Below, one piece after another: positions 39,276 to 40,565 of a stretch of 64,000 nucleotides of DNA. The notes under the pieces were generated by a model. The model had not been told where the DNA came from, did not search any database, and saw nothing but the letters and a program-made list of their open reading frames with translations. This DNA comes from Candidatus Marinacidobacterales bacterium. Its GTDB lineage: Bacteria; Acidobacteriota; Vicinamibacteria; Marinacidobacterales; DATDRI01. Every line of letters begins with the position of its first letter. The first letter of the stretch is position 1. The stretch is taken from positions 1,696,001 to 1,760,000 of the forward strand of contig CBDCNP010000002.1 of the NCBI GenBank assembly GCA_965219415.1. Direction: 5' to 3'. The translations under genes and the position numbers were made by a program.

Positions 39276-39319
39276 CAATCGAAGCTGGCTTCCCTCCTTT
39301 AATCCCTTGTATCTTGAAG

Positions 39320-39490
39320 CTCGCTTCAGGAGGCATTAGTTTTTGAGCGGGTGGCAGCTCGATAAATCCCTGGGTACCGCGAAGAGACCGTGGGAGGGCG
39401 TGGGCGCCACCCGCCCAATAGCGATTATCAGCCCGAACAGTTGCTAGGGGCCCTAACCCCGCATTTTGCAAGGATGGGCGAGAATCGCTG
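39320..39490 (+). ncRNA. Putative bridge RNA
   Basis: Two stem-closed internal loops. Target loop holds TAAATCCCT (39363-71) and GGGAGGG (39392-98); donor loop holds ACAGTTGCT (39437-45) and TTGCAAG (39466-72). These match the flanks and the end junction; 5' end approximate. Confidence 0.85.
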
Positions 39491-39510
39491 AGAAGATACG
39501 GGGACAAACG

Positions 39511-40473
39511 ATGGCCAAGAAAGAGATATATGTGGGTATCGACGTATCGAAAGCGACGTTGGACGTCAGTGTTCGTCCAACGGGAGAGCGCTGGCAGTTG
39601 ATGAATGACGAAGGCGGCATCAGCGAGTTGGTGGGCCGTCTTGAAGCCCTTTCGCCGAGCTTGGTGGTAGTGGAAGCCACCGGTGGTCTGGAACGAGCCT
39701 TGACAGCTGCGGTGGCGGCCCAAGGTCAACCGGTGGTGGTTGTGAACCCCCGTCAAGTTCGTGAGTTTGCCCGTTCGACCAGACGATTGGCGAAAACGGA
39801 CCGCATTGATGCCGATGTTTCTGGCGCTGTTTGGTGAGCGGGTCCGGCCCGAGCCTCGTGGTCTTCCTGACGAGATGCTGCGGGGCCTCGAGGCCATGGC
39901 GATACGCAGGCGTCAGCTGCAGCAGATATGTTGACGGCGGAGAAGAATCGCCTCGGCACAGCGACCCCTGCGGTCCGTGATGGTATCCGTAAGCACATCG
40001 AGTGGCTGCAAAAACAGGTGAAAGATGTGGACCGAGACACGGGGCAACTCATTAAAGAGAGTCCCGTCTGGCGGGCGAAAGATTACCTGCTGCGAAGCGC
40101 GCCGGGAGTGGGTTCGGTGCTCAGCCACACGCTCATCGCCAAGTTGCCGGAGCTTGGGACTCTGGGAAGAAAGCAAATTGCTGCGTTGGTTGGAATCGCC
40201 CCGATGGCTCGCAACAGCGGGACGCTTCGCGGCAAGCGCACCGTCTGGGGTGGACGTTCCTCGGTTCGCGGCGTCCTCTATCTGGGAACTCTGGTTGCGA
40301 CGCGACATAATCCGGTAATCCGAGATTTCTATCGGCGACTCATAGCCAGTGGGAAAGCGCCCAAAGTCGCCCTTACAGCTTGCATGCGGAAGTTCCTGAT
40401 CATTCTCAACGCTATGATACGGACTCAAACTTATTGGAATCCGCAACCGATGGATTCTGCTATTGACATTTAA
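39511..40473 (+). pseudogene. IS110 recombinase with two indels (near 39819 and 39925)
   Basis: GIDVSK, VVEATG and KTDRIDA (DEDD), then PGVG and GIAPMARNSG (catalytic Ser); the intervening frame reads [16 protein letters not shown]. Confidence 0.88.
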
Positions 40474-40565
40474 GACAGTTGCTCTCCCTTCCGCCTTCGC
40501 TAACATGAATTCGCTAGAGCTTCGGCAGACCCGCCGAAGTTCTCAAGAAACTACGTGGAGGTTAT

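Follow-up and report, generated by a model that had tools for sequence, protein, structure and literature searches.

A probable bridge-RNA element of the IS110 group, decayed in one Candidatus Marinacidobacterales genome and inserted at the edge of a REP-like repeat

Does an insertion sequence (IS) of the IS110 family in a Candidatus Marinacidobacterales bacterium carry, in its own non-coding end, an RNA that specifies where it inserts, and can this copy still move? The DNA analysed, called the window here, is a stretch of 64,000 nucleotides (nt) of contig CBDCNP010000002.1 (assembly GCA_965219415.1, positions 1,696,001 to 1,760,000), and all coordinates below are positions within it. A preliminary description had proposed, from the letters of the window, that the element is an orthologue of the RNA-guided IS621 recombination system with a different target and donor specificity. 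The present analysis indicates that 39308-40481 is very probably an element of the IS110 family and IS110 group (IS621-like) with a bridge RNA, and that it is a decayed, immobile copy which is intact in sister strains. As far as sequence comparison can tell, recombinase, ends, RNA, guides, handshake letters and junction promoter all fit an orthologue of the IS621 type.

The chromosome joins the element as TTAATCC-CT/TGTAT on the left and as ACAGTTG-CT/CTCCC on the right, with one CT per side (sequence reading of 39100-40700). The CT dinucleotide is identical at both junctions, and the element boundaries are confirmed because paralogous empty sites in the same genome run scarless and unbroken across the predicted junction. 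On re-reading the sequence, the coordinates first given for junctions, stems and loop motifs were reproduced to the base. The start CT+TGTATCT is found in 70 of 74 elements, a set made up of 73 homologues and the window element. The non-coding left end measures 203 nt (39308-39510) and the right end 8 nt (40474-40481). A long non-coding left end and a short right end, with terminal inverted repeats absent, are described for the IS110 group, and reversed end lengths for the IS1111 group (PMC11208160), so the layout seen here is that of the former and not of the latter. Membership of the IS1111 group (seekRNA type, with the guide RNA in a long right end and with longer inverted repeats in sub-terminal position) would be compatible with the protein family, which both groups share, and the same genome does hold 30 copies of an IS110-family element with a left end of about 113 nt. 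The window element departs from the IS1111 layout in the length of both ends, and its RNA model match lies in the left one; the assignment to IS1111 has practically no chance of being correct.

The RNA was approached with a covariance model, R1, built from the left ends of 39 non-redundant homologues, the window excluded, with a consensus structure computed by RNAalifold. A bridge RNA in the left end, as first suggested, is recovered by this model of our own making: R1 gives one match on the window, on the plus strand at 39332-39495, over the full model and at 94.6 bits (E 8.2e-23), and the same locus is its sole match in the 8-Mb genome. The consensus consists of two successive stem-closed loops of like build, each with an inner hairpin, and the single-sequence fold of the window agrees with it (z -2.7). 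Stem cells are paired in 98.8%, against 92.6% in shuffles and 39-47% when the partners are slid by one to three columns. Compensatory double changes occur in 12 pairs, against 5.4 in shuffles, and 0 of 500 shuffles attain the observed values. In the outer stem of the first loop, the target-binding loop (TBL), compensatory changes among homologues are found in 7 of 12 pairs. One further helix of the RNAalifold structure joins the donor guides to each other (columns 111-114 with 139-142). It shows no double change and is read as the two guide strands, not as a stem. Because R1 was built without the window and places the guides in it, their positions are set by homology and not freely picked. Rfam 15 returned no bridge-RNA family on the window at any useful score. 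Its Antizyme_FSE match on the neighbouring REP-like palindrome (REP, repeated intergenic palindrome) was at chance level only and was discarded.

A separate observation concerns sX15, a Xanthomonas plasmid small RNA (sRNA) of 159 nt in Rfam. Over its full length it aligns to the strand opposite the bridge RNA (minus strand, 39336-39494), at chance level only (E 6.7), and the alignment takes in the reverse complement of the conserved GCCCGAACAGUUG. The RNA is listed as the XCVd0107 primary transcript, and an antisense partner, asX7, is reported (PMC3300014). sX15 may be related to an IS110-type left end.

The TBL holds two guides, the left target guide (LTG) and the right target guide (RTG), to be compared with the left target (LT) and right target (RT) flanking the element. 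In the 39-sequence alignment, two variable stretches inside the conserved RNA frame coincide with the places of the left and right target guides of IS621. The RTG of the window pairs with core and right target at 6 of 7 positions plus one G:T, G39397 standing opposite the core T. With the CT core unscored, the guides of the window agree with their own flanks at 6/7 positions on the left and 5/6 on the right, or 11/13, a value attained by just 0.11% of 2,818 non-cognate guide/site pairs. The set behind this comparison holds 55 unique guide and site combinations from 70 loci and 34 guide families, window included. Cognate guides score 4.62/7 on the left and 4.85/6 on the right (9.5/13), against 2.95 and 1.79 (4.7/13) for non-cognate ones. 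A metagenome replicate (47 usable of 80 loci) gave 4.30 and 4.64 for cognate against 2.98 and 2.28 for non-cognate guides. Guides were pulled out with hand-made patterns, by which 72 of the 74 elements could be parsed (L025 and L039 were lost). The first set leaves out L079, which has no left flank, and L057, whose LTG was mis-parsed; the metagenome set leaves out 33 of the 80 loci and keeps a few mis-parsed LTGs, which lowers its cognate score.

The claim that the guides match the element's own insertion site is upheld by these comparisons, and covariation of guide and target among homologues, whose absence had been named as fatal to it, is seen in both sets. They bear equally on the view that the left end is merely a structured 5' untranslated region or a regulatory sRNA of the transposase, with coincidental matches between loops and flanks. 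Earlier work did take small RNAs in or near IS110 left ends as regulators, for instance in ISPpu9 (PMC11208160). The matching recurs, however, throughout the 34 guide families and in the second, independent set, the RNA is otherwise conserved and varies most in its loop letters, and the handshake positions described below are fixed as the IS621 mechanism requires, so that a purely regulatory RNA is extremely improbable.

On the donor side, the second or donor-binding loop (DBL) holds two guides, the left donor guide (LDG) and the right donor guide (RDG), for the left donor (LD) and right donor (RD), the joined ends of the element. That these guides match the joined ends, as had been noted, is correct: the LDG does so in full, and the RDG pairs with CT-TGTAT with one G:T. 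Identity of LDG and LD+core at 8/9 or better was counted in 63 of 74 elements. The window alone reaches 9/9, the other 73 having 8/9 or fewer; its match is unusual because the ninth LDG letter is usually not T but C, G or A. In IS621 the LDG pairs over eight nucleotides only (PMC11208158). The donors vary little, and little donor covariation is therefore visible: matching LDG/LD variants occur in 4 loci, and a variant on the LDG side only in 6.

Handshake guides are described in which donor position 7 is paired by the base that follows the RTG, and target position 7 by the one that follows the RDG (PMC11208158). The letter after the RTG is C in 72/72 elements and donor position 7 is G in 73/74; the letter after the RDG is G in 73/74, and 59 of 61 unique sites have C at target position 7. 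All four letters are present in the window (C39399, G40481, G39473 and C39305). Across the joined ends, the pattern TTGACN-17-TATCTT is found in 62 of 74 elements and reads TTGACA-17-TATCTT in the window, as a sequence match only. No sigma-70-like promoter site was found in 39100-40700 in the integrated state. A promoter rebuilt at the circle junction is described for IS110 elements (PMC11208160).

Transcription, circle formation and recombination of the element are inferred by homology with IS621. An intact element of this kind would travel in circular form and integrate by way of RNA-guided recombination. Excision would join the right and left ends and so rebuild a sigma-70 promoter (TTGACA, 17 nt, TATCTT), from which the left end would be transcribed into the bridge RNA. 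The first loop of this RNA would pair with TTAATCC-CT-CTCCC, with its bottom strand through the LTG and its top strand through the RTG, and the second loop would pair with the joined ends ACAGTTG-CT-TGTAT by means of LDG and RDG. A tetramer of the DEDD/Ser recombinase would then exchange strands at the CT core.

The recombinase gene of the window is broken. Its first part (39511-39837) matches DEDD_Tnp_IS110 (PF01548, 3.1e-19), and 39928-40473, in the same frame, matches Transposase_20 (PF02371, 2.7e-15). Some 100 nt between the two pieces read correctly in another frame only, and 2 stops lie inside the gene. The two pieces score 80.8 and 92.3 bits with NF033542 ('IS110 family RNA-guided transposase'), a model whose cut-off is 140 and which gives the intact homologue L007 a score of 241.5 bits. 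Among solved structures, the best relatives are the IS621 transposase (8wt6), with 2e-17 to the C-terminal and 1e-6 to the N-terminal piece, and the ISCro4 transposase (9t56), which at 2e-08 is the top solved match of the N-terminal piece. The motifs D (GIDVSK), E (EATGG), D..D (KTDRIDAD) and Ser (NSGT) align with the IS621 and ISCro4 chains. By manual count the catalytic residues of the window protein are D11, E55, D97 and D100; those of IS621 are D11, E60, D102, D105 and S241 (PMC11208158). With its two frame breaks, the window copy has no open full-length recombinase gene. Assignment of the element to the IS110 group is supported by every other sequence-level feature of that group.

The state of this copy was compared over 39100-40700 with contigs of four coded runs, X2 (study P2), X6 (P3), X11 (P4) and X12 (P5). 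X2 supplies one contig of 2,650 nt with 0 differences from the window, both frame breaks included. One X6 contig of 1,961 nt spans the whole stretch and its flanks, differs by 8 substitutions and is without one letter at 39818 and two letters at 39926. X11 also lacks the extra letters at both places; in X12 the two at 39926 are likewise missing, and 39818 is not covered. X6 and X11 are thus without the extra letters at the points where the homologous frame changes, which gives those strains an open gene at the same insertion. Position 39397 is A in X6, X11 and X12, so that their RTG perfectly complements CT-CTCCC; because the contigs of these three other studies agree, G39397 is taken as a private mutation at a core position. 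Accordingly, the RTG wobble described earlier is present in the window, opposite the core T, and is peculiar to this strain. Positions 39319 and 39448 also differ from the window in X6 and X11. It is concluded that the insertion predates the split of these strains and that the window copy is decaying. Two signals in these contigs were considered and set aside: an X6 record joining 40503 to 39186, a candidate circle junction, is another copy of the REP-like repeat, and loose contig ends at 40482, candidates for a circle or an empty allele, likewise belong to other repeat copies.

Assembly error is another conceivable source of the frame breaks, in which case the element would be intact and active in this organism. 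The first break falls inside a T run, where long-read errors are typical; the assembly has 3 contigs and 8.45% contamination; and the frame is open at the same locus in the contigs of the three other studies. On the other hand, both breaks recur in the independently assembled X2 contig, although the source sample may be X2 itself; the second break, an insertion of two letters, lies in no homopolymer; and G39397, together with the other substitutions against X6 on the same copy, fits a real, diverged lineage. Error in the assembly is therefore judged unlikely. The two breaks together restore the original frame, as would suit a broken gene that still yields recombinase through programmed ribosomal frameshifting at both places, and the IS1 and IS3 families use programmed -1 frameshifting. 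We know of no precedent for programmed frameshifting in the IS110 family. In 71 of 80 homologous loci the N-terminal start, at offset 2087 or 2090, is in frame with the C-terminal part at 2501; among three homologues translated (L006, L007 and L043) two have full-length open reading frames; the sister-strain contigs are without the extra letters, and the same two shifts are seen in no independent element. Double frameshifting is thus hardly credible, and decay of a once intact gene is the reading kept here.

Several observations weigh against a decayed bridge-RNA element with guides for its own site. If X2 is the source of the window DNA, the lesions stand without independent confirmation. Neither a circle junction nor an empty allele of the locus appeared in the contigs of the 4 runs, which drop rare forms. 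The stretch was listed in no RNA run, a result that is neutral on expression. With the hand-made patterns, the guides of 2 of the 74 genome loci were missed and those of a few metagenome loci mis-parsed. The LTG departs from its site at one letter, the second (A for T), and its register lies one nucleotide further 3' in the loop than in most homologues. By DNA and by RNA model there is one genomic copy, so insertion of several copies at a shared motif yields no evidence here. DNA of the element was matched in none of the 40 genomes searched from its genus, family and order, and a 21-nt stretch around the LTG has no exact match in metagenome contigs.

The register of the LTG deserves a comment of its own. 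Within the 10-nt stretch from the 5' linker to the inner hairpin, most orthologues use letters 1-9 for the target, and the window element and others (e.g. L072 and L021) use letters 2-10, in which case the final core letter is often left without a match. Tentatively, the target-binding loop of this clade may tolerate a one-nucleotide slide of the LTG, which we consider possible rather than probable. If so, the loop geometry would be looser than the IS621 structures suggest, and the sister strains' intact allele would amount to a bridge recombinase that is compact (1.17 kb) and orthogonal and whose natural target is REP-like.

The natural target of the element is the edge of a REP-like palindromic repeat present dozens of times in the genome. 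The reconstructed empty site, the 14-mer TTAATCCCTCTCCC, occurs at 4 places exactly and at 41 within one mismatch, where about 0.06 exact and about 2.6 one-mismatch sites are expected by chance (our own calculation, for 8 Mb read on both strands and a 14-mer). The 41 sites have a common left arm (…GGCTTCCTTCCTTTAATCCCT) followed by the palindrome CTCCC…GGGAGAGGG and often by GGGTGAGGG. None of the genome's sites matches the target guides perfectly, the second LTG letter being A and that of the sites T. The element lies at the foot of a REP-like hairpin, between the unit at 39161-39276 and the next one (40480-40560), and together with the repeats it fills the spacer that separates uvrA (40566-43415, minus strand) from a gene for a rhomboid-like membrane protein (38316-39062, minus strand). 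IS110 elements typically insert into REP elements (PMC11208160). In three other loci, L116 and L126 (metagenome contigs) and L079 (a Thermoanaerobaculia metagenome-assembled genome, MAG), an RTG for CT-CTCCC was observed beside CTCTCCC…GGGAGAG palindromes, so that similar REP-like hairpins appear to be targets in other hosts.

The palindromes of the REP-like repeat carry several kinds of filling, and some sites stand in tandem every 100 bp (C3 1648243, 1648343 and 1648443). The names uvrA and rhomboid-like membrane protein come from reading the translations. Among the immediate neighbours of the element, no resistance or virulence gene was seen.

A protein-seeded scan of species-representative genomes found 423 relatives; the best 80 (L002-L081), which were retained, are 58-67% identical over the C-terminal part. 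Their record titles name mostly Dehalococcoidia (Chloroflexota), and also Nitrospirota, Gemmatimonadales, Vicinamibacterales (Acidobacteriota), Methylomirabilota and others. The ends CT+TGTATCT and GACAGTTG+CT are found in 73 of the 80, in elements of 1,138-1,256 bp, and these 73 entered the counts given above; seven loci in which the left end, the right end or the DBL anchor could not be recognised (L004, L008, L017, L019, L034, L050 and L058) were left out. In metagenome contigs nothing exceeds 68% protein identity to the window recombinase. The same genome gives 93 matches to the IS110-family model, 47 of them in rows marked over the cut-off. Among its other IS110-family elements is the 30-copy one mentioned above, which is unrelated to that of the window; its full-length copies are 98.95-100% identical (L164-L175 etc.; C3:4603961-4605392 and 29 further places), and besides the short left end it has a long right end, an IS1111-like layout, with diverse left flanks. 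Its right boundary was set too short, and most copies share further sequence beyond it.

Some homologous loci show rearrangements of their own. At L030:1860-1930 the first ~30 nt of the left end (TTGTATCTTTGACATGTATGGGATAATCC) stand twice in tandem, and what parses as its 'left target' is a copy of the left end. L050 holds two C-terminal and three N-terminal IS110 matches in 5.5 kb, and L073 a second, distant IS110-type gene (344-991); both are clustered or nested IS110-family copies in chromosomes of Dehalococcoidia MAGs.

Table 1. Positions of the element, its predicted RNA features and its surroundings in the window (MFE, minimum free energy; C3 and L numbers in the text are the analysts' own labels).
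Feature	Position	Strand	Remarks
IS110-group element (probable)	39308-40481	+	1,174 bp, single genomic copy
Upstream REP-like palindromic unit	39161-39276	.	CCCTCTCCCC...GGGGAGAGGG, then GGGTGAGGGG; same architecture at 41 genomic sites
Left target (LT) TTAATCC	39299-39305	+	position 7 is C39305, partner of the DBL handshake G
CT core, left copy	39306-39307	+	read from sequence
Right donor (RD) TGTAT, left end of the element	39308-39312	+	sequence reading, 74-element comparison
5' hairpin of the left end	39308-39335	+	MFE fold
TATCTT, -10 half of predicted junction promoter	39310-39315	+	joined to the -35 only across the circle junction
Predicted bridge RNA core (both loops)	39332-39495	+	covariance model R1, model 1-158 of 158
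Target-binding loop (TBL)	39347-39414	+	outer stem 39347-55 GCGGGTGGC / 39406-14 GCCACCCGC; inner hairpin ~39372-89
Left target guide (LTG) TAAATCC-CT, TAAATCCCT	39363-39371	+	8/9 identical to LT+core
Right target guide (RTG) TGGGAGGG	39391-39398	+	includes GGGAGGG 39392-98; complements CT-CTCCC except G39397
TBL handshake C	39399	+	partner of donor position 7, G40481
Donor-binding loop (DBL)	39421-39488	+	GCGATT 39421-26 / AATCGC 39483-88; GCCC 39431-34 / GGGC 39476-79; inner hairpin 39447-50 / 39457-60
Left donor guide (LDG) ACAGTTG-CT, ACAGTTGCT	39437-39445	+	9/9 identical to LD+core
Right donor guide (RDG) AUUUUGCAAG	39463-39472	+	includes TTGCAAG 39466-72; discontiguous pairing with CT-TGTAT, one G:T
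DBL handshake G	39473	+	partner of target position 7, C39305
IS110-family recombinase gene, broken	39511-40473	+	RuvC-like DEDD part 39511-~39818; out-of-frame ~39818-39926; Tnp part 39928-40473
First frame break	39818	+	one extra letter against contigs of runs X6 and X11
Second frame break	39926-39927	+	two extra letters against contigs of runs X6, X11 and X12
TTGACA, -35 half of predicted junction promoter	40463-40468	+	inside the 3' end of the gene
Left donor (LD) ACAGTTG, right end of the element	40475-40481	+	sequence reading, 74-element comparison
CT core, right copy	40482-40483	+	read from sequence
Right target (RT) CTCCC	40484-40488	+	opening letters of the next REP-like unit (to ~40560)

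For biology at large the element matters little, since the 2024 work on IS621 already described the mechanism, the layout of the RNA, the targeting of REP elements and the junction promoter. It is a worked example of a bridge-RNA code that is readable from raw sequence in lineages far from Enterobacteria. As natural history, it offers a case in which the copy of one strain decays, with two frame breaks and a mutation of the guide at its core position, and sister strains keep the insertion intact. The clade to which it belongs is well sampled; its natural guide/target pairs run to dozens (34 guide families and 47 further metagenome loci), and guide rules, among them those on the second core position, on the handshake letters and on guide register, could be tested on them. 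This clade of elements of about 1.14-1.26 kb (L002-L081 and L084-L163) resembles the window element in its ends, DBL and junction promoter and is 58-68% identical over the C-terminal 170-179 residues. Unlike the window element, each member has its own target guides and sites; none exceeds 68% identity and none has the guides of the window.

Among known systems the closest likeness is to IS621 of E. coli (Durrant et al. 2024; Hiraizumi et al. 2024; PDB 8wt6). Both have a recombinase with a DEDD RuvC-like and a Tnp (Ser) part, a CT core, a long left end with a very short right end, and a two-loop RNA with LTG/RTG and LDG/RDG. The RD TGTAT, the RDG core GCAAG, the G:T pair of the RDG and its split pairing are the same (PMC11208158). 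Handshake positions, junction promoter and insertion into a repeated palindromic element are shared as well. A natural one-letter mismatch between LTG and site also has its counterpart in IS621, where the guide reads ATCGGGC and most sites ATCAGGC (PMC11208160). The differences are that the proteins are distant, roughly a third identical by an estimate by eye, that the target in the window is TTAATCC-CT-CTCCC, that the LD is ACAGTTG and that of IS621 ends in AT, that the RDG of the window has one more unpaired U, that its ninth LDG letter matches the core T, and that the copy is broken. Of the different specificity first proposed, the target part stands; the donor differs at two LD letters only, with the same RD TGTAT. 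This count of two takes letters 1-5 of the IS621 left donor to read ACAGT. The ISCro4 transposase (PDB 9t56) and IS622, engineered bridge recombinases, belong to the same family and are likened here by protein and description, not by RNA. ISPpu9 and ISPpu10 of Pseudomonas putida, also of the IS110 family, are described as inserting into a conserved repeated intergenic palindrome, as the window element does; compared by description only, they differ from it in host, in target and in being multi-copy. Thousands of orthologous non-coding RNAs have been predicted, and 5,511 target and 2,201 donor pairs with such RNAs analysed (PMC11208160), so that a further decodable orthologue of the bridge RNA, such as the one that the window probably holds, is to be expected.

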